Positions 12,487-64,000 of a stretch of DNA of 64,000 nucleotides are shown here, in pieces. Position numbers and translations under genes: made by a program. Below the pieces are notes generated by a model. The model saw only the letters and a list, made by a program, of their open reading frames with translations, made no database searches and was not told the origin of the DNA. Position 1 is the stretch's first letter. Each line of letters opens with the position of its first letter. Source of the DNA: a virus; the IMG/VR virus record IMGVR_UViG_3300017991_000064, positions 42,875 through 106,874 of that record; one strand, 5' to 3'.

Positions 12487-12498
12487 TCAAACCCCCCT

Positions 12499-12757: not shown

Positions 12758-12774
12758 ACCTCCTATCAACGGAA

Positions 12775-12802: not shown

Positions 12803-12842
12803 AACCATGCTCCAAAATATCGTAACGTATGTACGACCTGAA

Positions 12843-13316
12843 TCAGTTACCGATGTTGTTCACCTTGAACACATTCTGTTCCACTAGATGCTCAATGTAT
12901 GCACCGGTATCACCCATGAACTTATCAAGGAGATCCATCTTTTCCTTACCAAGAATTCTCTTGGCCTCGCTGATAACATTCTGTTTGATGACCTTCTTCT
13001 CTGCATCGGTTACCTTAGCACCACCATCGCTATCAGGTGCCTGGGCTTTCTTGTACTCCTTAACCAATGTTTGTTCTGCTGACATGACCAAAGTTTCGAT
13101 TAGTTCAGCCAGGTCCAGCTTGGTTTCGTAGTACTGTATCTTCTCACCCTGTGCCTCTGCGGCAGCTTTCTTCGCTTCCATATCTTTCTCATAGGTATCA
13201 ACGTATTTCTTCACCTTTGAGGAGATCATGGGAAGAAGAACAATAATAGCTGTTTTGATCAACCAGTTCAGTACGAGACTAACGGCCTCTGATGATAGCC
13301 ATTCCATTGTGTTCAC
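12843..13316 (-). CDS. holin-like protein (LL-H type architecture)
   Basis: One N-terminal TM helix and a LVMSAEQ...EKK...IE.LVE..V pattern; close to the endolysin. The true start is probably ATG 13307. Confidence 0.6.
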   Translation of the reverse strand: MNTMEWLSSEAVSLVLNWLIKTAIIVLLPMISSKVKKYVDTYEKDMEAKKAAAEAQGEKIQYYETKLDLAELIETLVMSAEQTLVKEYKKAQAPDSDGGAKVTDAEKKVIKQNVISEAKRILGKEKMDLLDKFMGDTGAYIEHLVEQNVFKVNNIGN

Positions 13317-13362
13317 CTCCGTTTATGTATGTAATCTAATGGTTTACTTATGATTCCTTGTG

Positions 13363-13587
13363 TCACCTCCGTCCCATGTAATATTTGCATCTAATGCATC
13401 TTCCTTTCTGTTTATCCTTTAACCCTTTCCTAAAGTTCCATTTGCCACAATTGTTGCATTTCCGCATGGTAGCTCTTTTCTTAATGGCCCACTTCAAAGA
13501 ACTAAATGGCGCTTTCACAATTCCTACAACTAGATCCTTCGGACTAATGAAGATTCCATGCCCTCGTCTATTGTTAAGAAATTTCAT
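13363..13587 (-). CDS. small basic zinc-ribbon protein
   Basis: CNNC...CIRC motifs; coupled to the endolysin stop (ATGA overlap). Confidence 0.55.
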   Translation of the reverse strand: MKFLNNRRGHGIFISPKDLVVGIVKAPFSSLKWAIKKRATMRKCNNCGKWNFRKGLKDKQKGRCIRCKYYMGRR

Positions 13588-14159
13588 TCCTTCCCCTCCT
13601 TTACGAACTTGGGAAGATAGATAAGATTCAATTTGTTGATTCGATTACTAACTCCGTAGTAGATACTATAGGTCCATATCCTCTTCCGTACGAGAGCAAT
13701 GTTGTATTTATCTCTCATGTCATTAAAGAAGGCTGCAAATCTTTCTACAACAACATTGCTGTAATGATCCTCTCCTCCCAAACAATCTTCTACCGCCTTA
13801 AGTGTAATGGGACCTATGAGTCCATCCATTCTTAGCTGAAGGTCATACTTAATGTTGAGACATTGTTGCATGAGACGAATGGATGTATGTGGTGATGCAT
13901 TGTAGGCAAAGTCCATTACACAGATATCTAACCCTGATGGTAACTCTGAGCATTTGGCCTTTTGCCATCGTGGCATGTATACCTCCTCGAATACTGTTGA
14001 CATCCTCAAGGTTTTATTCTTAATCTGTTCAGCATACTGAGGATACGCTCGTGATGAAACGCCATACATTGTTGTGCCACCTGGATCATCAGGATCATTA
14101 CTCCAGTATCCCTCAAATTCCATTAGAACCGGCCAAAATTTCTTTTCGTTCCCTCTCAT
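13584..14159 (-). CDS. endolysin, glycoside hydrolase family 108 with a peptidoglycan-binding segment
   Basis: EGYWSNDPDDPGGTTMYGVS catalytic motif, D.AYN and DGLIGPITL. Confidence 0.9.
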   Translation of the reverse strand: MRGNEKKFWPVLMEFEGYWSNDPDDPGGTTMYGVSSRAYPQYAEQIKNKTLRMSTVFEEVYMPRWQKAKCSELPSGLDICVMDFAYNASPHTSIRLMQQCLNIKYDLQLRMDGLIGPITLKAVEDCLGGEDHYSNVVVERFAAFFNDMRDKYNIALVRKRIWTYSIYYGVSNRINKLNLIYLPKFVKEGKE

Positions 14160-14181
14160 TGTGTCACCTCCATTTTATGTT

Positions 14182-14637
14182 TCATTCTGGTGTAAACCAT
14201 TCTTTTATGATTTTTGACCAGGTAAGTTGATTACTTTCATTAGGCATTCCCATCACTAGATTCGTATGGTGTGAAAATAATTGGAGATACATATTATAAA
14301 GTGTGGTGGAATACATAAGCACTAATGATCTGGGATTTAGCATGATAAACTGATCTAGAATAAATAGATCTGCCTTAACCTCATCCTTACTAAAATTCAT
14401 CTCATGGGTCATAGCTGTTGAGATAATTAATAGGTTAGGGTGGGAATCGGTAGCTTCATATATTGTATCAAAACGTTCAATCTCAAACTGTAGATTACAA
14501 TTGATGGAACATACTTTGAGAAGTTTTAGAAAGAATTTGTAGTCTACATAGTCATCATACAAATCATCATAACCAGATTCAATAAAAACAGCAGTTCTGA
14601 TAGAACCATTGGATGTTTCATTCATAATGTTTAACAT
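14182..14637 (-). CDS. degenerate receiver-like (pseudo-REC) protein
   Basis: Alternating beta/alpha pattern TAVFIES...HPNLLIISTAM...LVLMYST that resembles a receiver fold, with Ser at the phospho-Asp position. Confidence 0.4.
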   Translation of the reverse strand: MLNIMNETSNGSIRTAVFIESGYDDLYDDYVDYKFFLKLLKVCSINCNLQFEIERFDTIYEATDSHPNLLIISTAMTHEMNFSKDEVKADLFILDQFIMLNPRSLVLMYSTTLYNMYLQLFSHHTNLVMGMPNESNQLTWSKIIKEWFTPE

Positions 14638-14701
14638 ATCACCCCCATGATAATGGTAATTTTTAATACCTACCGAATTTCTGGGGCGATAGGAATAGCG
14701 G

Positions 14702-15397
14702 TTATATTTTTATCTGCCGTTTCCTACGCTTCTTCTTTTTTCTCTTCTTTCCAACCCCGATACCAGGTGGATCCTTGTGTACAGCATAGTAACCTAAGGC
14801 TATGGCATCTGCTGTATCATGAGGAAATTCATCAGGGTCTATGTCATACTCTGATGAAAGGATGATCTTAACAACCTGCTTAACCATGATCTCTTTTCTG
14901 AGTTTCTTATCCCTTAACTGATACTTCTTTGATTTGGATGAAAACTCTTTGGGAATCATAGCTCCTATATGTCTACTCTTAGCTGATGGTCCTACCTTAA
15001 TCAGTTTCACTCCTGGAAAGTAGAGGTGGAAGAGTGAGAAGTAGAGACCATTGAGTTCAGCTAGTTGTGAGAGAACTTTCCTACCTAAGGTATAAATGTA
15101 GTCATCAATATATACTCTTGTGATATTAGCATAGTGCTTTTTGACTGTAGAGATCCATCGGCGAATCATTCTGATGATAATCTCAGGTGTCATTCTCGAG
15201 ACTCCTAATTCAACCTCTTTATCGATCTCTAGGTTCTCGAAATGAATTGTGTAATGATCATAGTATGGTTTACGATCTTTCTTCCGTTTCTTAAGATTCA
15301 GATAACCAAAGTCAACGATTTCCTTGGTGTCCCAATCGAATATCGCAAATCCCATGTTATTCAAACCAGTATCTACCGCTAATACTAGATTACTCAT
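14702..15397 (-). CDS. RuvC-like Holliday junction resolvase
   Basis: VLAVDTGLNNMGFA, VYIDD and HDTADAIALG RNase H-fold motifs; basic C-terminal tail. Confidence 0.82.
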   Translation of the reverse strand: MSNLVLAVDTGLNNMGFAIFDWDTKEIVDFGYLNLKKRKKDRKPYYDHYTIHFENLEIDKEVELGVSRMTPEIIIRMIRRWISTVKKHYANITRVYIDDYIYTLGRKVLSQLAELNGLYFSLFHLYFPGVKLIKVGPSAKSRHIGAMIPKEFSSKSKKYQLRDKKLRKEIMVKQVVKIILSSEYDIDPDEFPHDTADAIALGYYAVHKDPPGIGVGKKRKKKKRRKRQIKI

Positions 15398-15398
15398 A

Positions 15399-15531
15399 TT
15401 GCCTCCGATGCTGTAATGTGGATGTAATGATCATAATAAAAAGAGAGGATACCTGCTCAAAACCAACGATTCATCACAGGTATCCACAATACGGTAGGTG
15501 ACAAACGAACCAAACCATTGATCGGAGGCAA
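15399..15531 (-). promoter_or_regulatory. structured leader of the RuvC-like gene (anti-SD helix enclosing a terminator-like hairpin)
   Basis: An 11 bp perfect IR (15399-15409 / 15521-15531) covers the GGAGG SD. An inner 9 bp IR (15447-15455 / 15477-15485) is followed on the minus strand by TCTCTTTTT. Confidence 0.6.
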
Positions 15532-15540
15532 AACGACCAT

Positions 15541-16047
15541 TTAGATCTGTTCATCATCCGGTAGGAAAACATTTTCAATTGCTGAAATGGAGGCCTCGAT
15601 TCGTGAAGCCATAGATTGGGCCTTGTCCATCATCTGTTCTCCGTTAGTGATTAGATCAAGAGCATTCATTATTCTTTTATGAACCTCACCCATATGAGCA
15701 TTCTTAGGAATAATGGTAATACAATTTCTACCTCGTAGTTCCTCGAGTATGAAACTTTCTGAAACACAAGTGTAAATAACAACTGGGGTGGTTACTCCGG
15801 AGTCACGAAGTTCAATGAGAAAATCCAAGCCAGCTCTACTGTTACCATTGATTCGGATATCGAGCACCAGAAGATCATGTGTCTGAACTTTCATACACTC
15901 TCTTGCAGTGAGAACATCCATTGCCCAATCTACCTGGAGCTTTGCATAATCATCTGGTACTATTTCCTCCAGATATCTTGTCCAGATTCTTCTCATAATG
16001 TGTTCATCTTCCATGAATAGGATACGATATTTTCCATCCTTTGTCAT
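15541..16047 (-). CDS. CheY-like response-regulator receiver protein with a C-terminal helix
   Basis: RILFMEDE acidic pocket, DLLVLDIRI phospho-acceptor Asp, GLDFL, PVVIYT switch Thr and IPK conserved Lys. Confidence 0.88.
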   Translation of the reverse strand: MTKDGKYRILFMEDEHIMRRIWTRYLEEIVPDDYAKLQVDWAMDVLTARECMKVQTHDLLVLDIRINGNSRAGLDFLIELRDSGVTTPVVIYTCVSESFILEELRGRNCITIIPKNAHMGEVHKRIMNALDLITNGEQMMDKAQSMASRIEASISAIENVFLPDDEQI

Positions 16048-16058
16048 AGTTTCACCCC

Positions 16059-16499
16059 TTAAACTCCAATGAAATACTTAATTAGAAGTAGAGAGACAGC
16101 ACCAAGGATACCCCAAAGATACTTGGAGAAGTGTTCCTTAAAACGATGCTTCTTATCTTCCTTAGTCTCTCTAGCTTCAGTATTCTTTTGTACCTTCTGA
16201 AACAGGTCGAACTCGTTAATCTTTTCCATTAATGCACATTGTCCGGTCATACAGGTATGCATCTGTTTCTTTTCAAGGTCTCTAAGAACCTGACGAACAG
16301 ATTTCTCAAACATCTCAATGTTGTGCTTGATGTTGGTAAACTCTAGTTCGTCATCTTTACTCTGCAATTCCATCTGATGAATCTTATTTTTAAGAGCCTC
16401 AATCCCCTCAAGGAGTTTTTCTAGTCTTTCAGGTAACCCTGACATCTGACCCATGAATTGATTCATCTTATCTTGTATTGTAATAGGATCACCTGGCAT
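16059..16499 (-). CDS. coiled-coil protein with a C-terminal TM helix (XhlA/holin-like architecture)
   Basis: Heptad-rich N-terminal part and terminal YLWGILGAVSLLLIKYFIGV; lies directly after the fibre genes. Confidence 0.55.
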   Translation of the reverse strand: MPGDPITIQDKMNQFMGQMSGLPERLEKLLEGIEALKNKIHQMELQSKDDELEFTNIKHNIEMFEKSVRQVLRDLEKKQMHTCMTGQCALMEKINEFDLFQKVQKNTEARETKEDKKHRFKEHFSKYLWGILGAVSLLLIKYFIGV

Positions 16500-16581: not shown

Positions 16582-19500
16582 TTACGGGTTACTTGCTTCT
16601 GTTGCCGTCCATGTTATTTCTCTTGAACCACCAGTATTGTCAACAACATAGTAAATGAACCCATCTTTATCAGCTTCCTGAACCCCAAATGAGCCACCTA
16701 TATACATCCATGACATACCACTGTAATATGATTTGGGAGTAATGGTAACTATAACATCATCACTACCAAATGCAGTGCTAAAAGAAACTTCTGTTGTTGT
16801 GTATGTACCCATACTGGCATTTATCTCATCTGTTCCACTCTTGACAGTAGGAATCACAAGTTCAACATCATCAATCTTGTATACACCAGTAATGTTGATA
16901 TTACCGTCCACATCAAGAACTTCAGCAGGTGCAAGATCATTGATACCAACCTTACCCCCCATGATTGCCATAGTGCTTGCTTGTGTAAGTGTCGGTGTTG
17001 TATTATAGTCTAAACTGAAACCAATTGAATACTGAGCATCTGAATCCGTAGTACCTACAATTATTCCGGCTCCTAATGCTATAGAATTTGCACTTCTAGC
17101 CGTGTTAGATGCTCCCAATGCTACAGAATTTGCACCAGAAGCAGTTGACCCGCTTCCAATTGAAAGTGAATAAGCACCAGTAGCATCAGCCTGATTGCCA
17201 ACAGCAAATGAGTATATGCCAGATGCTTTTGTGTTATATCCCAACGCATTGGAAAGAAAGCCGATATTGGCATCATCCCAGTCTGTAGATGAACTACGAC
17301 CTGCTCTAAAAGCTCCTTTTGACTTATCAAAGAAAAATCTATAGTCATGGTCAGAATCACCATCATCGGCAAGTTGCGGTGAACCCCATACAAAATCATC
17401 AGTTGAATATGTTACTTCACTGGAGTTTGCCCTGACAACAGTACCGGCTTTTTCCCAGTATGAAGTTCCACCGCCACCGGCAGCAAGTTCAGCAAGGGTT
17501 TTATCCCCTGTAACTCCGTCTGATAGTACAAGATTTCCACTGCCATCTTGGAATAGGTCAAATGAGCCAGAACCACCATGAAATGCCGTTGCTTCAATAG
17601 TTCCTGAAACTTCCAGTGTTCCAGATGGGGGGTTGATTGTATCTGACCTCAAGGCTGTTGCTTCAACAGTACCACCTACAGAAAGCTCATATGAGGGAGT
17701 CAGGTCTGCAATACCAACCTTACCTCTCATAATTGCTAAAGTATTGTCCTGAGAAAGAGTTGAAGATGAAGCAGCAAGATTGATAAGCATTGAGTTATCT
17801 GCACTACTATCAACAGTAGCATTACAACCCAAAGCAACACCATTACCCCCGTTGGCATTATTACCATAACCAAGAGCAACACCGCCCCAACCTGCAACCT
17901 CACACTGATAACCGATAGCAGTTGCATAATTGTTTGTAGCCTGTGACTGATACCCCATAGCTACAGCAGCATCAGCGGTAGCATCAGAAGCATATCCAGC
18001 GGCAAAAGCATAACTGTCACTGGCAGCACAATCATCACCGAAAGCAGCCGACCATGATCCTCTGTTAGCATCATCCCAATTCACAGAGTTACAGTACCCA
18101 GCCCGGAAAGCAGCTTTACTATCATCAAAGAAAAACCGCCTGTCTTTGGTTGCGTGTATCTGTCTGTTAAGTGTTGGAGAACCAAACACAAAGTCATTAT
18201 TGTAGGTTGTATCTGATTCCCTGACCACATCTGAATCTTCCTCAAAGACACCACCTGCTACTGCTTCACTTGTCCATTCTCCAGAAGCATCATCATAGGT
18301 TAAAACATCATTATCAGAAGGATTTGATACATCTACATCAGATAGATCATCAAGTGTTACTGATGAAAGTATTGTATTAACCTCATCCGTTAAACCTACA
18401 TACTGACCCTCAAGATAAACAGCTTTCAAAGTACCTTCGACTTCGACTGATCCGGCATTAAGATAAAGTTTTTGATTTGCTACACTATTATCAAAAATAC
18501 CGTAAATCAATGAAGTATCACGAGCGTTTGATTCACTATCACGAGGATAAATGTCAATAAAGAGTTTATTACTCCCCGTTTCATAATACCCTGCATCATT
18601 ACCAAGAAAGATATTATTTGATCCGGTAGTGTTAGTATAACCAGCACGATAACCTAATGCTGTATTAGCATTACCAGAGGTAATATTTGTCAAGCTATTA
18701 TACCCGATTGCAGTATTTTTATTACTATTACAATCAGCTAATGCTAATGAACCTATAGCTGTATTCTCATCTCCGGTGGTCACAGTATTTAATGAGTTAT
18801 AACCTACTCCAACATTACTGAACCCCTCGGTGATTTCCGTTCCAGCATAAGCACCTATTCCGGTATTATTATAGCCACTGGTAACATCTTGTAGAGTATA
18901 GCTTCCGATACCTATATTGCTCTGACCCGTTTGAGTAAAATTACCAGCCTGAACACCAAGAAATAATGAAGACCCAGAACCTGTGTAAGTATGAAGCAAT
19001 CTTTCACCATTCTGGGATATAACTCCTACATATTGCCCTGATGTAGTAGGTAAACTTGCATATCCAGTAATTTCAAGAGAATCAACCTTAACATTGCCAA
19101 CATTATTATTGACAATATCATCTCCATCAGCATCCCAATATGTAGTACCTGCTACTGCTTCACTTGTCCATTCTCCAGTTCCAGAGTCATAAACAAGAGC
19201 CTCACCGTCCTCTGGGGAAGCAACATTGACATCACCAAGATCATTCAAGTCAAGATCAATAGCAGCAATAGCGGTTTCGATTGTGGAATCCGCTTCCGCT
19301 TTGGTATAGGTTTCTGATTCAGTGTAATAACGATTGTCCAACTGTCCATTGTCAAGTTCCGTCTGCGTGTAAACCTCTGTAGAGTTGTAACTGTAAGAAT
19401 CTATTACACCTTCAATCTCGGCATCCGTTCTGATCTTGCCATCAATGACAGCCTGAGAGTAGGTATATGCTTCGATGGTACTGTCTGTTTGAGCTTTAGT

Positions 19501-21219
19501 ATAAGCATCAACAGCAGGAATAACCTCTGATGTCCACTCACCAGTTCCGCCATCATAGGTCAATACATCATTGTCACTTGGAGCAGAAACATTAACATCA
19601 GACAGTCCTGCAAGATCTTTGTTCCAAACTTCAACCGTCCACTCTCCGGGTGTATGTGCATATCTTAAATAAGCATCGTCAAAACCGGGATAAGTGCTTG
19701 CATCAACATCTGATAGATTGTCGAGTGATTGGAGTATGTAATTACCAGTTGGGATATATACTCCTGTTGTTGAGTCCTTTTGATACCAACCTTCTGCCAT
19801 TGGTACACCTTTTGTATCATCAGTGAACAATACTTGACTATTATCAGTAGTAATAGTTTCATCCCATGATGCACCATTATATTCATAGATATTTCCAGCA
19901 GTCCAACCGTTACCTGCAACTAAACAAGCATAACGATCACCTGTGGATGGTGCAATAGGAAGAATACCAGCAGCAACCCAAGCATTGAGGACATCAGGAT
20001 ATATAATTTGCTGTTCATCTTTGGTGTATACCTCAGTAGAGTTGTAGCTGTAGGAATCAATGATAGTTTCAACTTCTGATGTATTTGTACCACTTGCTAT
20101 AGCTTCACTTGTCCATTCACCGGAAGCAGTATCATAAGTAAGAACATCATTATCACTGGGGGCAGAAACATTAACATCAGAAAGATCACCTAATGCATAG
20201 TTCGCAAGTGCAGTATCAATCTCAGATTTACTGTATGCATAGGTTTCAATGGTGCTGTCCGTTTCTGCTTTTGTATAGGTGGTTGTCGTATCTGCCTTAT
20301 CATCCAGCAAATTATCAGTTTCTGTTTGCGTGTAGACCTCTGTAGAATTGTAGGAGTAGGCATCAATGATATTTTCTACAGTAGAATCTAAATCAGTAAT
20401 GGTGTCAGCCTGATTTACAATACCGTCATCATTAGTATCATAAGTAGACTTCTCCATATCACCTGTACCAATAGCAGGTTTATTGGTGACATTATCCCAG
20501 TGAAGTTGTGCCTGTCCTGATGTCTGCATATTTGTCTGTGTGTAGTAATCAGCAGGGTCAATATAAGCCTCAATGGTTGAATCTGTTTCAGCCTTTGTAT
20601 ACACATCTGAGGCACTAGCAAAATCTGATACAGCGGAACCACTATCCTTGATATTGCCAGAGGCATCAAGAGATACAAGGTTGTCCTCTGTACCTGCTGA
20701 AACTATATCTGCTTTGTCATCCAACAGATTATCTGTTTCTGTTTCAGAATAAGCATAGGTTTCTATTGTAGAATCTGTTTCTGCTTTGGTATATACATCT
20801 GTTGCATTGGCCTTATCATCCAGTAAATTGTCTGTTTCTGTTTGAGTATAGACATCAGCTTTAGGATAAGCATAGGCTTCAACTGTTGCATCTACCTCAA
20901 CCTTAGTGTAAGTAGTAATTACATCAGCTTTATCATCCAACAGATTATTGGTTTCAGTCTGAGTATAATAATCTGAGGGATCAATGTAAGCCTCGATTGT
21001 AGCATCTACCTGAGTTCTAGTATACCCCTCTGCCGTATCCAAGAAGTTTTCATCTACTTCTGGAGCCAACTTGTCCAGTGTAACTGCTGTATCCTGAATA
21101 GAATCAGTTACAACTGTATCTTCTGGGGCATCAGGGGGATTTCTCAACCCCAATACTGGAAGACACAGCGACAGCAAAATTAATGTAATGAGTGTTAAGC
21201 GTTTGTACTTGTCGTTCAT
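16582..21219 (-). CDS. 1545 aa fibre/adhesin-like protein with an N-terminal signal peptide and YadA-head-like repeats
   Basis: MNDKYKR + LTLITLILLSLCLPVLG; YTKAE.D.TIE.Y repeats; LxDLxDV linkers; N(T/I)(A/G)IG..(S/A)L and A.G..A.A.G beta-roll repeats; H-type-lectin-like C-terminus (VSFSTAF...VTITP...WTA). Confidence 0.75.
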   Translation of the reverse strand: MNDKYKRLTLITLILLSLCLPVLGLRNPPDAPEDTVVTDSIQDTAVTLDKLAPEVDENFLDTAEGYTRTQVDATIEAYIDPSDYYTQTETNNLLDDKADVITTYTKVEVDATVEAYAYPKADVYTQTETDNLLDDKANATDVYTKAETDSTIETYAYSETETDNLLDDKADIVSAGTEDNLVSLDASGNIKDSGSAVSDFASASDVYTKAETDSTIEAYIDPADYYTQTNMQTSGQAQLHWDNVTNKPAIGTGDMEKSTYDTNDDGIVNQADTITDLDSTVENIIDAYSYNSTEVYTQTETDNLLDDKADTTTTYTKAETDSTIETYAYSKSEIDTALANYALGDLSDVNVSAPSDNDVLTYDTASGEWTSEAIASGTNTSEVETIIDSYSYNSTEVYTKDEQQIIYPDVLNAWVAAGILPIAPSTGDRYACLVAGNGWTAGNIYEYNGASWDETITTDNSQVLFTDDTKGVPMAEGWYQKDSTTGVYIPTGNYILQSLDNLSDVDASTYPGFDDAYLRYAHTPGEWTVEVWNKDLAGLSDVNVSAPSDNDVLTYDGGTGEWTSEVIPAVDAYTKAQTDSTIEAYTYSQAVIDGKIRTDAEIEGVIDSYSYNSTEVYTQTELDNGQLDNRYYTESETYTKAEADSTIETAIAAIDLDLNDLGDVNVASPEDGEALVYDSGTGEWTSEAVAGTTYWDADGDDIVNNNVGNVKVDSLEITGYASLPTTSGQYVGVISQNGERLLHTYTGSGSSLFLGVQAGNFTQTGQSNIGIGSYTLQDVTSGYNNTGIGAYAGTEITEGFSNVGVGYNSLNTVTTGDENTAIGSLALADCNSNKNTAIGYNSLTNITSGNANTALGYRAGYTNTTGSNNIFLGNDAGYYETGSNKLFIDIYPRDSESNARDTSLIYGIFDNSVANQKLYLNAGSVEVEGTLKAVYLEGQYVGLTDEVNTILSSVTLDDLSDVDVSNPSDNDVLTYDDASGEWTSEAVAGGVFEEDSDVVRESDTTYNNDFVFGSPTLNRQIHATKDRRFFFDDSKAAFRAGYCNSVNWDDANRGSWSAAFGDDCAASDSYAFAAGYASDATADAAVAMGYQSQATNNYATAIGYQCEVAGWGGVALGYGNNANGGNGVALGCNATVDSSADNSMLINLAASSSTLSQDNTLAIMRGKVGIADLTPSYELSVGGTVEATALRSDTINPPSGTLEVSGTIEATAFHGGSGSFDLFQDGSGNLVLSDGVTGDKTLAELAAGGGGTSYWEKAGTVVRANSSEVTYSTDDFVWGSPQLADDGDSDHDYRFFFDKSKGAFRAGRSSSTDWDDANIGFLSNALGYNTKASGIYSFAVGNQADATGAYSLSIGSGSTASGANSVALGASNTARSANSIALGAGIIVGTTDSDAQYSIGFSLDYNTTPTLTQASTMAIMGGKVGINDLAPAEVLDVDGNINITGVYKIDDVELVIPTVKSGTDEINASMGTYTTTEVSFSTAFGSDDVIVTITPKSYYSGMSWMYIGGSFGVQEADKDGFIYYVVDNTGGSREITWTATEASNP

Positions 21220-21230
21220 TTCATCCCCCT

Positions 21231-24200
21231 TTACAGGTTTTCATCGTATGAGTAATAAATGGTAATGGCTTCACCACCACTTAAACCCGTAATAACAACA
21301 TTGTGTTTATCCCCGCTGATAGTAAAATCAGAAGGATAATATTGAATGGTGTCATCAACTGTAACCCACGGAATACCTTCCATCTTCCTTGAGGCATCAG
21401 CATCACATGGATAATTGGTTACACCATTAACACCTACTTCCAGTGTCCAGCCGTTGACGATCTTTGGAATCTTTCTTGCTATCCACTGATTAGAATTATT
21501 CCTGATAAGAATTTCATCAGAAGCAACTCCCAAGATACTTACATCATTGAGATCGGCAAGTGTAATAGCAGCAGCGAAAGTTTCAATAGTGGAATCAGTT
21601 TCCGCTTTGGTGTAAACCTCTGTGCTGTTATAAGAATAATCGTCAATGATACCTTCTATTTCAGCATCCGTTCTGATCTTGCCATCAATGACAGCCTGAG
21701 AGTAAGTGTATGCTTCAATAGTTGAATCTGTTTCAGACTTTGTATATATTTCTGTGCTGTTGTAACTGTAGGCATCAATAACCGTTTCTACATCACTCGC
21801 ATCCAGTATCACATCATTATCAAGATGTGTCCTGATTTCAGCAGCGGTGGAGTTATTCACACCATCATACACAACCTCTGCGGAATCGGATATGCCGTTG
21901 TCGTTTTTGTCATACTGAGCCTTGAGCATATCACCAGCACCTGTGACAGTTTCCGATGTCCATTCTCCTGCTCCATCATCCCAAACTAAAGATTCACCAT
22001 CACTGGGAGTGGAAACATTGACATTAGAGAGGTCATTGAGAACCCGATTGTCTATCTCTGTTTTTGTATAAACCTCAGTAGAGTTATACGAGTAATCATC
22101 AATGATACCTTCTATTTCAGAAGTGGTTTTTCCTGATGGAGCATCAACATTTTCCCATTCAGAGGCACTGTCATTCCATGCCATCATCTGACCATCTGTA
22201 GCACTGCCTACATTGACATCCCCGAGATCATCAATGCTTGCATCAGCAATAACGGCTTCAATGGCAGTCTTTGAAAGCAGTGTTACAGTACCACCACCAG
22301 TAAATGTCCCACCGTTATCAAGGAATGATGAATAAGTTTCGGAATCCATTGGATGTCCACCGCTTCCAGAAATATTTCCACCCTTCCACTTACAGTCAAT
22401 TAGACCGCCCGGTGGAATGTAATCGGTGAATGTTCCATCAATACCATTACTGATTTCACACTGTACCAGTCTGCCATATGAAGCTACCTCTATGGTTTCA
22501 TCAAATTCACAGTTCTGGGCCTCAAGAAGATTTCCAGCAGAGGCATCCATATCAAATGCAGCATCAAACATACAATCACGCAGGAACATATTAAGGTTGC
22601 CAGCATTGCCAGAACCATCCATATCCCCGATAACCTTCAACTGATTTGCATGGAACTCTTTGCTGGAAGAAGCCCCACCTGACCAGTTGATATCACCAGA
22701 CACTATGAATCCACAACCATATGAGGGGTGAGTTGTAGAAGTGGTGGAAGGGGTCAGCGTTCCAATATAGAAAGTTTGTCTGCGTTCCCCGTAATCCTGA
22801 GTATCATCAAAGTTTATTGTGATATCTCTCGGAGTAGTTGAGGCATAGTATGTTCCAACACCATCACCGAGAACAACCGGGCCTATACCAATCAAGGACA
22901 CACTGATATTTATACCCACTGACAGGCTTTCATCATACCTTCCAGCATAAATCAAGATAACATCCCTTTGAGCAAGCTCTGTGGCCCCACTGGAAGGTTG
23001 TGTGATATTACTCAATGCTCCCTGTATAGTTTTCCACGGGAATCTCTCTGAACCATCCTCGGTATAAGAATCGGTACGGTTTCCATCAACCCACTGAACC
23101 CTTGTAACCTCATAAGTATCAGTTATAAGGTTACTGATATCAGTGTTCTTCCACTCAGAACTTACAGCATCCCAATACATCACCTGATCCTGTTGTAATG
23201 AGGTAAATGAAACATCACCAAGATCATTCAGGTCAAGATCAACCAGTTTTGTAATGGTAAGTGCTGCTCCTGTTATGGCCCCATTGTCAGCGAACCACTT
23301 TGCAGATACATCATCCATTGTGCAGGTTTTTGGTGCTGAAAGATTAATTTCCGTTTTTCGGAAGAAACAATCAGTGAAATTACCTACAGCATAAGTTGTA
23401 TCAAAGTTATTGCACTCAATCTCCACGGTATTATTAGCTCCCCACTCATCAGAACTAAACTGACAATCACGGATGCTAACTATGGTAGAGGCATCAAAAT
23501 CCGGCCCCATGAACCTACAACCCTTAACCTGCTGCCAGTAAAAAGATGAACCCGTTACTGATCCAGACACTGAACTATCTTTCATATAGATAACACTTGT
23601 ACCAGTACCAGACTCTTCTGAAAAATCTCCAGTAATCCTTGTATGGGTTAAGATTCTATCATGGGTTGTCGACCCTGTTTTCCCTGATTCAACCTGTAAG
23701 TGCAAATTACCGTCAATGGTAAAACCAGACTGCTTAGAAGGATGAGTTCCGTTCCCAAAAGCTATCCCATTAAAAGAAGGAACAGCCCGGAAGGTTCCAG
23801 AGGATACCCCGTACTCATACTCAGCAGCTATCTCCTGCGTAACATTTCCAGTGAAAGTAACCCCACCTACAATATGCTGAATAGAACGATAAGGAACTAT
23901 CTCACTACCTGTAAGTGTGTATTCACCCGGAGCAAAGATAGCCTTAAACCTCTGCTGATACTCTGCTGCTGATCCAGCCTGTCCAATTTCAGTCCAGAGC
24001 TTGCCCGGAGTAGCCCACGGATTAGAGAATGAACCATCACCAGTTGTATCGTTCCCGTTTGGAGCAATATAGTATGTCCTATAGAAGCTGGTATCCATTG
24101 AGATAGCTTCACTTGTCCATTCACTTTCGGAGTCATTCCAAACAAGGCTTTCCCCATCAGAAGGAGATGATACATTAACATCATCCAGATCATTCAGATT

Positions 24201-26705
24201 AACAGGAACCTCAGCTGTATCGGCTTTATCAATATCAAGCTGGTCGATTGCTGCTTTAACATTGGCCCCGGTAACTGTTCCACTGTATACAACCCTTGAA
24301 GCATCATCCACATAGGTTGTAGCAGAGGGGGTTCCACCTGACAGGCTAGAACTTGCATCCAGATAGAGATTTGCCGGAGTAGTACAGTGAATCTCCGATT
24401 TGTCAAAACCATAGATTGTAGCACTTCCGTCATTTAGAGTCAGTGCTTTTGTACCGCCCCATTTCTTGACATTATGGCAAACAACTATACACTCATGTCC
24501 ACCACAAGAAATAGCATTACCATTAGCACTAGCACCACCTGTGATATATCCTACATTACTTAATTCAATGTAATTATCACCTGATGCAGTATACAAAGAA
24601 CCAGAGGTACTATTACGGCAGTAGATAATGAGGTTTTCAAACTTAACATTATCACCATACCATGCTCCGGCTCCATTAGACCAGAACAAAGTAGTTCCAA
24701 CTACAGTATCGCTTAATACCCCTCTGAAAGTAATGTTTGAAACATCCTTTGAAGCAGGAGTAAAAGCAATCTGTCCACTACAAACTATTGTTCCACCGCC
24801 CTTAGAAGCAACATAATCAATAGCATTGTGGATATTGGAATAATCAGCACCAGAAGAAGCACAGGTAACTGTTACATTGGTTTTGGAAGCATCAGGAATA
24901 GAACCGATACTAGCCCCACTGTCCTTGATGTTACCCGAACCATCAATTGTAACTACATTGTTCTCAGTGCCTCCACTGATGATATCTGCTTTATCATCCA
25001 GCAAATTGTCTGTTTCAGTCTGAGTGTATATCTCAGTGCTGTTGTATGAATAATCATCAATGATTGTTTCAACCTCTGATGTGTTTGTCCCGCTGGCTAC
25101 ACTACTGTTCTGCCATTCTCCCGCCCCATCATTCCAGACAAGAGCCTGACCATCTGTGGGGGAACCAGCATTGACATCGGACAGATCATCGAGGACTGCT
25201 GATGTATCCAGTTTCCCGGAAAGTTCAGTGCTGATTTTATCGGATGACCAGACCTCTGCAACATCAGTAGTACTGTCATCAAGTTCACGGGGTCTGTAGT
25301 TTTCCCCCAGTGTGCCGGAGTTCAAAAGGGTCAGACTGCCACGGGGGAGGTGCTGAACAAAGTTCACACCATAATGCGCCCCCCAACTCGGTTTTGATCC
25401 TGCATCATCCCAGTCAACAGTAATGTCACCGGAAGATTCAGAACCCTCATACCAGATACCAGCCGTCTGCTCATAGAGCATATCGCCTGTTATGTAGGTA
25501 TTCTGGTAATCAATTCCATTTACAATATTGGAATGGATTGATTTTGAACCCCCAAGGCGGCAGTCCATAAACTGAAGCTCATTACCGCCCAGACTTGTTC
25601 CAGCTATACCTTGAATAAGAACACCGTATTCTCCGGCATCAGTGGACTGAATGGAAAAGCCCTTGATCTTCATATCCCACGGTTCTGGGTCAACACCGTT
25701 GTCGGCTATGATAAGGGCATTACCAGCATAATGCCACTGAGAAACACCTTGACCGTATCCAATCAAATGAATCCCCGCCATGTCCACAGTAACCTGTTCG
25801 GTAAATTTTCCGAGAATATCAATAACCACCGGGTCAATGGCTGTAGGTGTCATTGTTTCAGCGACAGAATAAGCATGAGCGATAGTAAGGAAAGGATCAA
25901 TTTCAGAACCTGTTCCAGCATCACTACCGTCTATCCGTACATACAGAACTCGGTGTGCTTCTTTTACCACATCAATAATCGAATCAATTTCAGATTCAGA
26001 ATAAGCATATGCTTCAATGGTTGCATCAGTTTCTGCTTTGGTATAAGCTACACCAACATCTGCTTTACCCGAAAGAAGTGAATCAACTTCACCACTATTG
26101 TAAAGGTCACTCTTTGTATAATAATCAGAAGCACCAAAACCTGAATCGGAAGCATCACCACCTGCGGTAAGTCCAACAAAGTTACCGGGAACTGGCCCCG
26201 TAACCTGATTCATCTTGCCAGTAATCTCAATATCAAGATCAGTAATATTGACCTCAACATTGTCATCCTTAAAAAAGAGTTTTCCAGTAACGGGATCAAA
26301 CCATGCTAAAGCTGAAGTTGTGCCAATCTCAACCGTATTAGCTTTCAGGGTATGACATTCGACTGTAGTTACCGCTGATAACTTTTGACATTCCAGAGTG
26401 CCGAGATTAGTAATAGCAAGACCATCAAAATCCCAGTCAGCAGTAGGTTCGTGCGTACCATCCCTGCGAGTATAGTCGCTAAGGTCAACTTCAACTGTTA
26501 CCCCAGAGATATCAGTAACATAAAGGTGTTCGACCTCTATTGTACCGAAAACATTTGCTTCTCTAGTTCCTTCCCGAATAAGCCTATCAGTTGGCATAGA
26601 GTCAACATCTATTCTAGTCCCTGGTATTGGTACCAGACAGAAAGCACTCTGTATAGTTACCAGGAGGAACAGGAAAGCAAGCCATAAAATTTTTCCACGT
26701 GTCAT
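21231..26705 (-). CDS. 1824 aa fibre/adhesin-like protein with an N-terminal signal peptide and several beta-helix (pectin-lyase-like) domains
   Basis: MTRGK + ILWLAFLFLLVTIQSAFC; repeated beta-helix entry motifs (LYV..DGSD..GS..DPF.TI, YYIAPNGND..GDGS..NPW.T, DGSERFPWKTIQ.A); LxDLxDV linkers; AAGGAGG SD. Confidence 0.75.
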   Translation of the reverse strand: MTRGKILWLAFLFLLVTIQSAFCLVPIPGTRIDVDSMPTDRLIREGTREANVFGTIEVEHLYVTDISGVTVEVDLSDYTRRDGTHEPTADWDFDGLAITNLGTLECQKLSAVTTVECHTLKANTVEIGTTSALAWFDPVTGKLFFKDDNVEVNITDLDIEITGKMNQVTGPVPGNFVGLTAGGDASDSGFGASDYYTKSDLYNSGEVDSLLSGKADVGVAYTKAETDATIEAYAYSESEIDSIIDVVKEAHRVLYVRIDGSDAGTGSEIDPFLTIAHAYSVAETMTPTAIDPVVIDILGKFTEQVTVDMAGIHLIGYGQGVSQWHYAGNALIIADNGVDPEPWDMKIKGFSIQSTDAGEYGVLIQGIAGTSLGGNELQFMDCRLGGSKSIHSNIVNGIDYQNTYITGDMLYEQTAGIWYEGSESSGDITVDWDDAGSKPSWGAHYGVNFVQHLPRGSLTLLNSGTLGENYRPRELDDSTTDVAEVWSSDKISTELSGKLDTSAVLDDLSDVNAGSPTDGQALVWNDGAGEWQNSSVASGTNTSEVETIIDDYSYNSTEIYTQTETDNLLDDKADIISGGTENNVVTIDGSGNIKDSGASIGSIPDASKTNVTVTCASSGADYSNIHNAIDYVASKGGGTIVCSGQIAFTPASKDVSNITFRGVLSDTVVGTTLFWSNGAGAWYGDNVKFENLIIYCRNSTSGSLYTASGDNYIELSNVGYITGGASANGNAISCGGHECIVVCHNVKKWGGTKALTLNDGSATIYGFDKSEIHCTTPANLYLDASSSLSGGTPSATTYVDDASRVVYSGTVTGANVKAAIDQLDIDKADTAEVPVNLNDLDDVNVSSPSDGESLVWNDSESEWTSEAISMDTSFYRTYYIAPNGNDTTGDGSFSNPWATPGKLWTEIGQAGSAAEYQQRFKAIFAPGEYTLTGSEIVPYRSIQHIVGGVTFTGNVTQEIAAEYEYGVSSGTFRAVPSFNGIAFGNGTHPSKQSGFTIDGNLHLQVESGKTGSTTHDRILTHTRITGDFSEESGTGTSVIYMKDSSVSGSVTGSSFYWQQVKGCRFMGPDFDASTIVSIRDCQFSSDEWGANNTVEIECNNFDTTYAVGNFTDCFFRKTEINLSAPKTCTMDDVSAKWFADNGAITGAALTITKLVDLDLNDLGDVSFTSLQQDQVMYWDAVSSEWKNTDISNLITDTYEVTRVQWVDGNRTDSYTEDGSERFPWKTIQGALSNITQPSSGATELAQRDVILIYAGRYDESLSVGINISVSLIGIGPVVLGDGVGTYYASTTPRDITINFDDTQDYGERRQTFYIGTLTPSTTSTTHPSYGCGFIVSGDINWSGGASSSKEFHANQLKVIGDMDGSGNAGNLNMFLRDCMFDAAFDMDASAGNLLEAQNCEFDETIEVASYGRLVQCEISNGIDGTFTDYIPPGGLIDCKWKGGNISGSGGHPMDSETYSSFLDNGGTFTGGGTVTLLSKTAIEAVIADASIDDLGDVNVGSATDGQMMAWNDSASEWENVDAPSGKTTSEIEGIIDDYSYNSTEVYTKTEIDNRVLNDLSNVNVSTPSDGESLVWDDGAGEWTSETVTGAGDMLKAQYDKNDNGISDSAEVVYDGVNNSTAAEIRTHLDNDVILDASDVETVIDAYSYNSTEIYTKSETDSTIEAYTYSQAVIDGKIRTDAEIEGIIDDYSYNSTEVYTKAETDSTIETFAAAITLADLNDVSILGVASDEILIRNNSNQWIARKIPKIVNGWTLEVGVNGVTNYPCDADASRKMEGIPWVTVDDTIQYYPSDFTISGDKHNVVITGLSGGEAITIYYSYDENL

Positions 26706-26725: not shown

Positions 26726-27148
26726 TTACTTCTTGTAAAGCACTATTACGTTCTGACCAGCAGTTAATGCCGGAGTAAATGTAATAGTGGGGTTTGGGGA
26801 AGCAGCTTTGTCTATAGTGTATACACCAGTGAGAGGTTGTACTGTGCCTCCTATCTCCCATACAATAGCCCTATTCTCATGCGGGGTTCCATCCGTTAGT
26901 GGATAGGTAGCACTACCATCACCATTAACTTCACAGAATCCCATTCCGTGGCCGGGAATAGCAGCAGCCAGCCCCAACCGTACTGAACCATCACTTTCAT
27001 CAACTATCTTCCCTAGTATCTCATCTAGGTTTGTCTTCTCACCAATATCACCATCGGGTAATGGAGTATCAGTGAACTTAACTGTTAGATTCCTGTTGGC
27101 TACTAAGTAAATAAACTTGAGTAGCTTATCAAGAGCCCATTTGCTCAT
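26726..27148 (-). CDS. small virion-associated protein (paralogue of 27260-27601)
   Basis: IGEKTNLDEIL...DE...VR motif and C-terminal beta domain ITFTPALTAGQNVIVLY. Confidence 0.5.
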   Translation of the reverse strand: MSKWALDKLLKFIYLVANRNLTVKFTDTPLPDGDIGEKTNLDEILGKIVDESDGSVRLGLAAAIPGHGMGFCEVNGDGSATYPLTDGTPHENRAIVWEIGGTVQPLTGVYTIDKAASPNPTITFTPALTAGQNVIVLYKK

Positions 27149-27259: not shown

Positions 27260-27601
27260 TTAGGTTAGTTGAACTTTTCTTTGATCACCGGAAGCCAGCC
27301 TGGTGACCAACCAGAGAGCATCGGCCCCTGAAGTATCATACCACAGGACGGATTGTCCATCAACAGCAAGAGTGGGTTCAGCAGCAGCAGACACGAGAGG
27401 AGGAACCATAGCAGCGCTACCTTTAAGATTCACCCTCAGAGCATGGTTACCCTCATCATGAGCCAACCTCAGAAATTCATCGAGGTTGGTAGATTCACCG
27501 ATAGCATCCACCGATGCAGCAGCACCATCAGCTACCACGTTAATCGCACCCTTGGTCTGATCGAACACATCCAGTAAGATCGAGTCAGCAGTTCTTCCCA
27601 T
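27260..27601 (-). CDS. small virion-associated protein (paralogue of 26726-27148)
   Basis: IGESTNLDEFL...DE...LR motif; strong AGGAGGT SD. Confidence 0.5.
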   Translation of the reverse strand: MGRTADSILLDVFDQTKGAINVVADGAAASVDAIGESTNLDEFLRLAHDEGNHALRVNLKGSAAMVPPLVSAAAEPTLAVDGQSVLWYDTSGADALWLVTRLASGDQRKVQLT

Positions 27602-27783: not shown

Positions 27784-30700
27784 CTAGATATTGTCTTCAA
27801 TTTTCTTTAGTTTCAGAGGATAAATGTTATTGTTCTCCTTATCCAAGAAGAGAATCTGAAGACCTAACTCAGTAGTTTTCACTACCTTCATGTATCCATT
27901 TGCTACATCCGTAAGGTCAGTCCCGGAGATGATCTGGATAGACATAATGGTGCCATCCGGATTAGTTATCCAAAGTTGTACGTTACCTGTAACACCGTCA
28001 TTCACCAAGATGAAAATTCTACCATCAGCAACAGTTCCCCCAATAATGTTTGCTTTTATAGCAGTTATGGTAGAATTCAATTCTCCGCGATCACTAAATA
28101 CCATGAAGTCAAACACATGTGCAGATGCTACATCGAAGTGTAATTGTCTACTCTTATTCTCAAGACCTAAGTACCAGGTAGCAAATTCTGTACTCGGACT
28201 GGTACCACTATGTATAATGGCTACCTTAGCCACCGAAAGATCCCTAAGAGCAAGTCTAAGGCCGACCACTCTATAAAGATTAGCTGGAGTGGTGTCTGTA
28301 GAGTAGTTAGCACTTATGAACCTAACAAGAGAGTCTCCAACCAACCTATTCATAACATTCAGACTGTTACCCGTAACATCACCACCTGTAAGGTCATAAG
28401 AATCTATTAGATACTCTAAGGAATCTACAGACGCTAAAGCAACAGTGGTCTTGAAGGAAAAGTCATATAAGTAAACCATCCAATGATCTACCCCAATAGC
28501 TTCAGCATTCAAACTGACCCAGCTAAAGATCAAATTACCCTCTTGGCTCATTACCTTCAAACCATCAACCGAACCACTTGTAGCTACACCATTCCACCAG
28601 GTTACCGTCTTCACAATTGATTGAGACAATGAGAGGGTTCCCATATCTACAGCCAGGGCTCTCATTTTATAATCTGTCCCAGTTAAACCCCCCATTAAGA
28701 GGTACATATTATTAGCTACGAAGATAGCATCACTAAGTTCCACATTTGATAATGCCTCAATAACAAATGATTCGGTCGATGATAAGGTTCCTGAATCAAT
28801 GTCAATAATATGAGCATAGAGAGTATTGGTATCGAATTTGAAGAGGATCACATAGTTCTGATACCAACCATACTTGTCAGATATATTTGTATCCCCCGTA
28901 TCTATATCATCAACCAGTGACATATCCTTATCATACAGATAAAGATGCCCATTAGCCTTATTTAGAACCATGATATACTCTGGGTGGTCTAAGAATCTGA
29001 TATCAGTACCTGCAAAGGATACAGCAGACCCCAATATGGGATAATATTGTCCATTACAGATGTCCATTGTTGATTTCAAAGGTTCATCGATATATTTCAT
29101 CCTACCCAATAGAGTATCTGAAGTAACTACTCCTAGATGACCTATGCTTGGTACCATGAGTAGAGTATCATCCACTAAGCTACCAGAGGGAGATTCTGAC
29201 TTTACATAGTCAAGTTGATTAACCAAGACATCATATTGAGCATGACTATGTAAAGCATCAGCAGAACTACCACCAACAAGAGTAGCAAACTGTGTTCTCT
29301 GGATAGCCGTCAATTCCCACCGCTTTAGGAAAGATGGTGTTGTTTGTACTATGTATAGATCCCAGTCATCAACTGAAGCAGAGCCCATCATTGACAGAAC
29401 CAGGACTGGTACATCATCCAAAGCTTCGAATACCCAACCGCTAGCAGTATCGGTAGCAATCTGTTGTGGATAACTTGCCCAGGCACCAGTGGGAGAATCA
29501 AGGATCAAATATCTTTTATCATCCCCGGCAGGTGTAGGTGGAGTATTTGAAGCATCGTAAACTGGAAGAATCATTGGCATCTTGAGGAATGACTCAAGGT
29601 TCTTAGCGAAGTAGCCAGTAGAAGACTTAAACACCCAGTAACGATAGTTCTCTTGTTTAGTACTATCCATCTTTGATAGAACCAGAACAGGAACAGTATA
29701 CTGCTGGAACTGCCAACCTCCTGCGCCATCAATAGCAATCTCGCAAGGATGACCATTCCAATCTCCAGTAGGATTATCCAGAGTAAGATATCTTTTGTTA
29801 TCTGCTGCTGATACTGGAGGTGTATTTGAAGCGTCCTCAACAGCTTCTACAGTAGCAGGATTATCGCCAATGGCTGCTATGATTGCAGCATATTCCGCCG
29901 CTGTAATCTTTTTGTATGCAGATCCCTGTTGAACCTCATCCATCGTGACCAGTTCAGATACCTTCTGAGTATAACCTGATGGATTAGATTTGAAGATGTA
30001 GAATCTCCAATTTGTTTTGGTTGCTGTATTCTCTTTTGACAGAACCAGTGTATCATCTGTAAAGTCAAAGAATTCCCATCCACCAACAGCATCCTTTGCT
30101 ACCTGGTAAGCATGACCATTCCAATCTCCAGTAGGAGAATCAGAGCAGAGATAAAGTTTATTATCCTGGGCGGCAGCCGGGGGTGTATTAGAGATGTACT
30201 CCACTGGAGAGATACAAGGAACCTTCAATCCAAGATAGGTAGTAAGGTTCTTGTAAACTGTACCACTTATATGCCCATAGGTGGCACTATCTGAATCCAC
30301 CTCAATTGAAAGAGTGTCATTGTGCACCATCGTGGATCCAGCATTGAAGATTCCTGTCGCAGTCTGTACAGCCTTCATCTTTGGAGCGGGAGTTGGTTGA
30401 TCAGCATCCAGGTCCAGGAAGAAGGTAGCATGATCAAAGGAGTAGAAGGTCCAGGTAGAACTCCCATCGGATACAGCCAGTTCGTAATTGTGATTTAGAA
30501 ATGCTCCTGTGCCAGCACTTCCTACCATTATCCTTAATCCTGCAGCATGAGCTGGCGGTGTATTGGTAACATATGAAACCGGGAATACCATGGGGCCCAT
30601 GTTTCCAACGGCCTCAACTACACCACTATAGCGATCGATATCAGGTACGCTGTCAACCGACAATGGGCCGGTACTGATTGATGCCAGAATGATATCTGTT

Positions 30701-31041
30701 GCTACCAGTTCTCCGGATGTTACGGATAGAATGTCCATCCATTCATTGACCTGCGGTTTCCATTCAAACCGTGCTATAATGTATTCATCACCTGGGTCCG
30801 ATGTTACATCGTAGTTCAATGTGGTACTGATATTGATGAGCCCGGGATCCCCCGCCTTATCAAGTATAGCCACCTTGAAAGGAGGAACTCTTACATCAGA
30901 TCCACTCACAAAGGGAATTCCATCCCTTCCCAGAATCCCAGCATTTAGAACATGTTCGAATACATACTTGAGTACGTCACCTTTGTACTCAGATCCGTAT
31001 TTACCAAAAACTTTCTGACCAGCGATATTAGTAGCACCCAT
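27784..31041 (-). CDS. baseplate-attached tail fibre / receptor-binding protein with four DUF2793-like repeats
   Basis: Four copies of TPP...(R/L)Y(L)...PTG.W.GH..(Q/E)(I/V)A....GW.F and a beta-rich C-terminal region; follows the baseplate genes. Confidence 0.7.
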   Translation of the reverse strand: MGATNIAGQKVFGKYGSEYKGDVLKYVFEHVLNAGILGRDGIPFVSGSDVRVPPFKVAILDKAGDPGLINISTTLNYDVTSDPGDEYIIARFEWKPQVNEWMDILSVTSGELVATDIILASISTGPLSVDSVPDIDRYSGVVEAVGNMGPMVFPVSYVTNTPPAHAAGLRIMVGSAGTGAFLNHNYELAVSDGSSTWTFYSFDHATFFLDLDADQPTPAPKMKAVQTATGIFNAGSTMVHNDTLSIEVDSDSATYGHISGTVYKNLTTYLGLKVPCISPVEYISNTPPAAAQDNKLYLCSDSPTGDWNGHAYQVAKDAVGGWEFFDFTDDTLVLSKENTATKTNWRFYIFKSNPSGYTQKVSELVTMDEVQQGSAYKKITAAEYAAIIAAIGDNPATVEAVEDASNTPPVSAADNKRYLTLDNPTGDWNGHPCEIAIDGAGGWQFQQYTVPVLVLSKMDSTKQENYRYWVFKSSTGYFAKNLESFLKMPMILPVYDASNTPPTPAGDDKRYLILDSPTGAWASYPQQIATDTASGWVFEALDDVPVLVLSMMGSASVDDWDLYIVQTTPSFLKRWELTAIQRTQFATLVGGSSADALHSHAQYDVLVNQLDYVKSESPSGSLVDDTLLMVPSIGHLGVVTSDTLLGRMKYIDEPLKSTMDICNGQYYPILGSAVSFAGTDIRFLDHPEYIMVLNKANGHLYLYDKDMSLVDDIDTGDTNISDKYGWYQNYVILFKFDTNTLYAHIIDIDSGTLSSTESFVIEALSNVELSDAIFVANNMYLLMGGLTGTDYKMRALAVDMGTLSLSQSIVKTVTWWNGVATSGSVDGLKVMSQEGNLIFSWVSLNAEAIGVDHWMVYLYDFSFKTTVALASVDSLEYLIDSYDLTGGDVTGNSLNVMNRLVGDSLVRFISANYSTDTTPANLYRVVGLRLALRDLSVAKVAIIHSGTSPSTEFATWYLGLENKSRQLHFDVASAHVFDFMVFSDRGELNSTITAIKANIIGGTVADGRIFILVNDGVTGNVQLWITNPDGTIMSIQIISGTDLTDVANGYMKVVKTTELGLQILFLDKENNNIYPLKLKKIEDNI

Positions 31042-63998: not shown

Positions 63999-64000
63999 AG

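Follow-up and report, generated by a model that had tools for sequence, protein, structure and literature searches.

A 64,000-nucleotide stretch of viral DNA (the window; positions 42,875 to 106,874 of IMG/VR record IMGVR_UViG_3300017991_000064) carries two adjacent genes for giant fibre-like proteins in the tail module of a myovirus-type phage, and the N-termini of both proteins are best read as real Sec-type signal peptides. P0001 is a fibre-like protein of 1824 amino acids (aa) encoded on the minus strand at 21231..26705, with matches to phrog_9627 and other PHROG families. P0002, a fibre/adhesin-like protein of 1545 aa (16582..21219, minus strand), matched the tail spike family phrog_4636 at 6e-17. 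Together both genes amount to about 10 kb, i.e. 9.5% of the genome. The reading as signal peptides follows from the retention of the signal, including cleavage-type c-regions, across 11 clusters of homologues and four phage loci. Thus P0001 and P0002 probably leave the cytoplasm via Sec with cleavage of the signal.

The signal-peptide-like start of P0001 covers residues 1-23 (26637..26705, minus strand) with the n-region MTRGK (charge +2), a 13-residue hydrophobic run and the c-region QSAFC. That of P0002 covers residues 1-24 (21148..21219, minus strand) with MNDKYKR (+2), a hydrophobic core and PVLG. Both open reading frames (ORFs), their lengths and their N-terminal sequences exist exactly as described in a first-pass annotation, which had been made from the letters alone and had considered the starts unlikely to be mis-called. 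We likewise found the starts to be secure. The Shine-Dalgarno sequence AAGGAGG lies 10 nt ahead of the ATG of P0001 (26716..26722, minus strand) and GGGGGA just upstream of the start of P0002 (21224-21229, minus strand), and the distances from the upstream stops are 20 nt for P0001, where the preceding ORF stops at 26726, and 11 nt for P0002. Strongly hydrophobic 19-aa windows were confined to residues 4-12 of P0001 and 5-10 of P0002; a weak further hydrophobic patch was present in P0001 at about residue 1260. A classical start with n-, h- and c-region was seen in four of the 135 ORFs of the genome, i.e. P0001, P0002 and two small non-structural proteins, so that among structural genes a signal-peptide-like start was restricted to the two giants.

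The conservation of the signal was examined with the sequence that follows it. P0001 residues 24-135 (26301..26636, minus strand) constitute a conserved N-terminal segment (N-segment) that always accompanies the signal peptide. A word-indexed search with P0001 residues 1-480 matched P0003, P0004 and P0005, the hydrophobic starts of which end in IWA/E, VGA/E or VCA/D (the slash marks the predicted cleavage site). An exhaustive phmmer search with residues 1-200 against 1.84 billion representatives yielded 167 matches. The N-segment was located at the protein's own N-terminus in 11 clusters, i.e. P0003, P0004, P0005, P0007, P0009, P0011, P0013, P0016, P0017, P0018 and the query P0001. All 11 had an n-h-c start, compared with none of the 141 other fibre matches, which have only generic fibre repeats in common with the query; the coupling of signal and N-segment had a Fisher p of about 6e-17 with clusters that share ancestry and are not phylogenetically independent. 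Only one signal-less protein, P0057, aligned from its N-terminus, and its start is located downstream of the family-specific part of the segment. This part, which truly travels with the signal and would form the mature N-terminus, comprises residues ~24-70 (LPG.RI.D..L ... EVEH), and residues ~71-105 (DY.KRDG..P..W.F.G..ITNLG) form a generic motif of fibres, present also within fibres that lack a signal. Hence the signal of the P0001 family withstood the check proposed with the first-pass annotation, i.e. whether homologues retain the hydrophobic N-terminus. P0002 residues 1-130 as a query did not yield homologues of near-equal length.

At least one K or R preceded the hydrophobic core in every one of the 11 clusters. 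Besides the three c-regions given above the homologues had VNA/D, IFA/E, VAA/D, ALA/V (two clusters), GWA/E and VKA/E, i.e. sites of the AXA-type with small residues at -3/-1 and a following acidic or neutral residue (D/E/V) were present in 10 of the 11 clusters. Pairwise identity in the family was 24% in the signal region versus 52% in residues 51-100, and apart from the start methionine the alignment had no invariant column before residue 29. The features kept in the signal region were hydrophobicity, a length of 15-27 aa, a positive n-region and small residues at -3/-1. Low identity beside a conserved neighbour indicates that the region evolves as signal peptides do, unlike structural helices. 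Furthermore, because the conserved residues start right behind the hydrophobic run, use of a downstream start codon is implausible.

In diderm bacteria Sec export delivers proteins to the periplasm. The features of a signal for Sec and signal peptidase I were seen in the two proteins, namely a positive n-region, an uncharged h-region of ~7-15 residues near the N-terminus and small residues at -3/-1, the latter weak in P0001. Four other routes were tried and rejected. A lipoprotein processed by signal peptidase II was excluded by the sequences SAFC in P0001 and LSLC in P0002, neither of which has a G/A/S at -1 of a lipobox; the pattern [LVI][ASTVI][GAS]C was unmatched in the window. A twin-arginine translocation (Tat) signal was dismissed because neither n-region contains RR. 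Concerning a trimeric autotransporter, Pfam and NCBIfam revealed no C-terminal YadA_anchor, and the NCBIfam YadA model fitted the head only (positions 93-154). For cargo of the type IX secretion system (T9SS) the C-terminal domains TIGR04183/TIGR04131 had no match at E <= 1. The Bacteroidetes Q rule, for which we refer to PMC10367356, does not hold for the mature N-termini of the family. The absence of a C-terminal autotransporter barrel, an LPxTG motif or a transmembrane (TM) anchor from P0001 and P0002, as claimed earlier, was borne out by Pfam, NCBIfam and a hydrophobicity scan.

The layout of the window was compared with that of three loci from independent metagenome assemblies, L001, L002 and L004, which are of a sipho- or podo-like type. 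Common to them is the order of an unsignalled tail protein, small ORFs, one or more signal-bearing giant fibres and then lysis genes. In L001 a tail protein (phrog_1101) is followed by ORFs of 120, 131 and 89 aa, a 2017-aa signal-bearing giant (…PVAA/DD), a tail-anchored protein and a GH108 endolysin. The 2017-aa giant is a fusion that starts like P0001 and ends like P0002 (…ATEASNP), which suggests that P0001 and P0002 are parts of one fibre. In L004 a tape-measure gene precedes a gene for a 947-aa protein, which is followed by ORFs of 163, 130 and 90 aa and by P0004. No long fibre other than the signal-bearing giant follows the Tal-like protein in L001 and L004. The L002 contig, which also has an RNA-polymerase-like gene, encodes an unsignalled 519-aa fibre, a 124-aa ORF and three consecutive signal-bearing fibres (9221-16104) of 1241 aa, ~300 aa with an internal start, and >707 aa; the N-terminus of P0002, signal included, aligns to one of these signal-bearing proteins. 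Shine-Dalgarno sites were located ahead of all seven signal-bearing ORFs examined, and in four of four loci the first signal-bearing fibre is preceded by small ORFs of 88-140 aa that have no signal. The signal thus belongs to a set of fibre genes that occurs in phages with differing tails, each time as the final structural genes ahead of the lysis genes.

The body of P0001 is built from fibre repeats behind the N-segment, four beta-rich modules, knob motifs and a small C-terminal beta domain. Each beta-rich module opens with a tailspike-like 'Y.V..G.D...G....P..T'. The repeats YTKAETD…/YSYNSTE and the knob motif L.DVN..SP.DG..L.W are common to P0001 and P0002. The C-terminal domain of P0001, ~70-90 aa (..DFTISG....V.I.G....GE.I.I.Y.Y; 21234..21503, minus strand), recurred at the ends of two signal-bearing fibres of L002 with 27-30% identity and in several short family members. 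The first beta-rich module was also found on P0006, a 1619-aa fibre that has no signal and whose N-terminal domain is ordinary. Identity to P0006 was ~60% in the module, an estimate from the alignment, and 41% across the whole aligned region. The common module is a typical case of module exchange among receptor-binding proteins. P0001 has 22 cysteines, five of which are spaced at 15-18 residues between positions 1063 and 1128 (window ~23322-23519). Paired cysteines as a sign of periplasmic folding were set aside, because this spacing looks more like a beta-helix ladder than disulfides.

P0002 contains YadA-head repeats. The best YadA-head/Hep_Hag-like stretch is at residues ~1317-1396 (17032..17271, minus strand), and further copies are located at ~700-860 and 1030-1130. 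The repeats matched Pfam PF05658 with an E of 6e-10 and the YadA and BpaC heads in the PDB (1p9h, 7o23, 3s6l). A tip domain, residues ~1425-1545 (16585..16947, minus strand), ends the protein with ..ATEASNP. With residues 900-1545 more than 828 homologues were found, mostly on bacterial chromosomes. Many of the best ones, encoded on contigs of Bacteroidota, Rhodospirillales, Micavibrio and Patescibacteria that reach 6.5 Mb, are annotated as 'tail fiber domain-containing protein' with Peptidase_S74 and YadA_head. Signal peptides were present in 80 of 116 homologues inspected; several others had pilin-like N-termini or were fragments. In P0158, P0161, P0164, P0169, P0185, P0196, P0233 and others, of alphaproteobacterial and Micavibrio-type origin, a conserved pilin-like start ..ERGN(V/I)FF(T/A)LFGAVA.. 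replaces the signal. Many of the homologues with such a start end in a TM segment and a basic tail, which looks like a different targeting of the same fibre body.

Structure-based approaches added little to the sequence comparisons. AlphaFold2 monomer models were of low confidence, with a predicted local distance difference test (pLDDT) of 48 for the N-segment and 44 for the first beta-rich module. Foldseek with the latter model returned no meaningful match, PDB sequence and profile searches with P0001 found nothing, and a search of the ESM Atlas gave sub-threshold leads only (Mtd_N, T4_gp9_10_N). The first-pass annotation had described very acidic bodies with YadA-head-like rolls and beta-helix domains. 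Acidity was evident, as D+E account for ~15% and K+R for ~5% of both proteins, and the YadA-head-like rolls were recovered in P0002 by PF05658 and the PDB heads. The beta-helix domains are plausible in view of a NosD match of a homologue and of sequence patterns; yet no tool confirmed them, and Pfam had none on P0001 and P0002.

The two genes are embedded in the genome of a phage that was assembled from a sediment metagenome. The contig has 106,874 bp with 41% GC, and the window is its final 64 kb. Window positions 63770-64000 are identical to genome positions 1-231, and this direct terminal overlap of 231 bp shows that the genome is complete, circularly assembled or terminally redundant. The capsid protein has only 28-30% identity to that of any cultured phage (Bacillus SP-15, Listeria LIS04 and Maribacter phages), which marks a deep lineage. 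No close relatives were found among GenBank phages, compared at the DNA level, in IMG/VR or in 185,579 species genomes. Two small signal-bearing proteins without a family match are encoded on the plus strand, one of 152 aa in the window (7756-8214) and one of 175 aa at genome positions 23115-23642.

The structural operon, of the myovirus type, is on the minus strand of the window. It begins with the major head protein (49146-50594), sheath, tube, baseplate hub and wedge genes and a tail-collar-like ORF. These are followed by a 1085-aa fibre, two small ORFs, P0001, P0002, a tail-anchored coiled-coil protein, a CheY-like receiver, RuvC, a GH108 endolysin and a holin-like gene. The 1085-aa protein (27784..31041, minus strand) is a conventional tail fibre; as stated in the first-pass annotation it has no signal peptide, its N-terminus is not hydrophobic and it has none of the repeats or knob motifs of P0001 and P0002. 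No terminator-like or strong promoter-like sites were detected in the intergenic spaces around P0001 and P0002; thus nothing suggests a break from the operon.

Between the conventional fibre and P0001 are an ORF of 113 aa (27260..27601, minus strand) and, directly upstream of P0001, one of 140 aa (26726..27148, minus strand) that had no family match; neither has a signal. Both share the motif G(E)(S/K)TNLDE(I/F)L and may be paralogues. The small ORFs of L001 and L004 both begin with MSLW.F. A domain common to the small upstream ORFs and the C-terminus of P0001 was considered and dropped, because the hhalign probability was only 9%. Directly after P0002 a 146-aa coiled-coil protein with a single C-terminal TM segment is encoded (16059..16499, minus strand). 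A coiled-coil protein with a single C-terminal TM segment also follows the last signal-bearing fibre of L001 (10786-11196), and though the architecture is equal BLAST detected no similarity between the two. This protein could be a holin-like or lysis-timing protein. A stand-alone CheY-like receiver (PF00072, 3.6e-12; 15541-16047, minus strand), odd near a phage lysis region, lies between the fibre genes and RuvC/endolysin. The endolysin with GH108 and PG_binding_3 (13584..14159, minus strand) marks the downstream lysis cassette. GH108-type endolysins are commonest in phages of diderm bacteria, a weak host hint only; together with the short signals of 15-27 aa the enzyme hints at a diderm host. 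Just past the endolysin of L001 (11872-12621) a 249-aa protein with a classical signal peptide and no family match is encoded.

Phages are known to use the host Sec system for SAR (signal-anchor-release) endolysins, spanins and superinfection-exclusion lipoproteins such as T5 Llp. These are small lysis or exclusion proteins, not fibres of 1500-1800 aa. The PblA/PblB proteins of phage SM1 are tail-fibre proteins that act also on the cell surface; they lack a signal peptide and arrive at the surface by way of lysis. P0001 and P0002 resemble conventional tail fibres and tailspikes (T4 gp34-37, P22 tailspike, P0006) by their position after the baseplate, mosaic modules, PHROG matches, distribution over several genes which in one relative, L001, are fused, and the tailspike-like module in common with P0006. 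In contrast to these they have a signal peptide and a short conserved segment in place of a cytoplasmic virion-attachment domain. With trimeric autotransporter adhesins (YadA, BpaC, Hep_Hag) they share the Sec-type signal, the left-handed beta-roll head repeats (P0002) and the acidic fibrous build. However, they lack the YadA_anchor barrel, hence cannot translocate themselves across the outer membrane, and phage fibre repeats and knobs dominate the remaining chain.

The closest design is that of the mosaic adhesive trimer (MAT) fibres of Bdellovibrio bacteriovorus (Caulton et al. 2024, PMC10769870). All 21 MAT fibres have a conserved ~130-aa beta-rich domain directly behind the signal peptide, which is thought to bind a predator surface element (PMC10769870). 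The P0001 family corresponds to this in having a signal peptide, at once followed by a conserved N-terminal segment, a long mosaic trimeric-type fibre composed of modules of phage fibres and a variable tip, which is a match of design only. The body of P0002 is homologous to bacterial chromosomal fibres with S74 and YadA_head, most of which are signal-bearing. On the other hand, P0001 and P0002 are phage-encoded and occupy the tail-fibre slot, whereas MAT genes are on the bacterial chromosome; the N-segment of P0001 had no detectable bacterial homologue (185,579 genomes; exhaustive phmmer); and Pfam found no S74 chaperone domain in P0001 and P0002.

What becomes of the presumably exported proteins can be answered only tentatively. 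The first-pass annotation had proposed attachment to virions at or after lysis, display on the infected cell, or release as decoys or depolymerases, each of which may apply. We lean towards an extracytoplasmic fibre set, envelope-bound or freed at lysis, that would be adhesin- or depolymerase-like, and we consider this slightly more likely than a role as obligate virion parts. It is favoured by requiring no new mechanism, by the kinship with exported bacterial fibres and by the normal fibre already present in the phage. In the course of events that we infer, from export and cleavage to trimer state, cooperation of the two proteins and function, P0001 and P0002 would be made late together with the tail proteins. 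The unfolded chains would pass through SecYEG, the host probably being diderm, lose the signal to signal peptidase I and, once outside the cytoplasm, fold into long mosaic trimers. In such a fibre P0001 would lie proximally and P0002 would supply the distal part with the YadA-like heads and the tip domain, and the fibres may bind or degrade surface glycans in a MAT-like or an adhesin/depolymerase-like manner. If the proteins are exported, the usual cytoplasmic mounting on virions is not possible for them.

Several points weigh against such an extracytoplasmic set. Cleavage is predicted at VLG/L in P0002 and at A-F-C/L in P0001, and the latter is weak and less canonical than in the homologues. 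No route across the outer membrane was found, i.e. neither an autotransporter barrel nor a T9SS C-terminal domain. An accessory with no part in the virion would be expensive at ~10 kb, 9.5% of the genome. Both the location of the genes, where receptor-binding genes classically lie, and their evolution by exchange of modules are those of receptor-binding proteins. In addition, the N-segment was absent from the 185,579 bacterial species genomes, from IMG/VR and, by tblastn, from GenBank phages, and the phmmer matches that carry it are on metagenome contigs of 64 kb or less only. This absence suits a phage-internal partner better than a host surface anchor.

An alternative is that of exported virion fibres. 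P0001 and P0002 would be the long host-recognition fibres of the phage, would acquire their fold in the periplasm and would attach to completed particles still devoid of fibres. Attachment would occur only once holin lesions have joined cytoplasm and periplasm, while the outer membrane is still intact, and the N-terminus newly made by signal peptidase would be the docking end. The gene location between baseplate and lysis genes, where tail fibres are encoded, without a terminator- or promoter-like break, the PHROG tail-spike and fibre matches, the beta-rich module in common with signal-less P0006, the restriction of the N-segment to short metagenome contigs, the giants of L001 and L004 as sole long fibres after a Tal-like protein, the 10-kb cost and the receptor-binding-like evolution all agree with it. 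Yet the literature searched held no precedent, the phage of the window already has its unsignalled 1085-aa fibre, and no docking partner was identified. We regard exported virion fibres as possible though doubtful. That long host-recognition fibres mature in the periplasm and join DNA-filled, fibre-less particles only during lysis seems to us rather unlikely. Less probable again is a lack of any export, in which case the hydrophobic N-terminus would be a helix that has a structural role or tethers the protein transiently to the membrane, or else a relic with little function, and the fibres would be assembled on the baseplate in the cytoplasm. Tailed-phage assembly is cytoplasmic in all studied cases and the c-region of P0001 is atypical, in line with this proposal. 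However, a structural helix should be conserved like its neighbours, whereas here only signal-type features are kept; in 10 of 11 clusters an AXA-type site precedes an acidic or neutral residue; and none of the 141 ordinary fibre matches has such a helix. Finally, the genome comes from a metagenome assembly, and the arrangement might be due to start codons that were called wrongly or to an island of bacterial adhesins misjoined to a phage contig. We consider such an artefact highly improbable, as the contig closes on itself by the 231-bp overlap, the giant genes are tightly packed in the structural operon, and three independent assemblies have the same arrangement with a Shine-Dalgarno site ahead of each start. 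Thus we favor the view that P0001 and P0002 carry true signal peptides and may act as an extracytoplasmic fibre set.

In the literature searched we found no report of Sec signals on phage tail fibres. The nearest one describes signal peptides on other Porphyromonas phage genes (Matrishin et al. 2023, PMC10367356). The present case contributes a myovirus-type genome, the strict coupling of signal and N-segment, the fused form and the link of P0002 to an exported bacterial fibre family. The first-pass annotation had proposed an undescribed system; this holds for the literature searched, but the architecture as such is known in bacteria from the Bdellovibrio MAT fibres and the heads of trimeric autotransporters. 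The value of the finding is limited for now, because export is deduced from sequence features alone and the phage is uncultured.

Textbook assembly of tailed phages is wholly cytoplasmic. A conserved signal on ~10 kb of fibre genes, retained in several types of uncultured phages, would mean either a periplasmic branch of virion assembly or very large exported adhesin- or depolymerase-like fibres. If fibre maturation in the periplasm holds true, some steps in the morphogenesis of tailed phages would lie outside the cytoplasm. Either meaning, if true, would change the annotation of receptor-binding genes and the prediction of host range from metagenomes, and would give the exported phage-fibre-like adhesins known from predatory and other bacteria a counterpart in phages.

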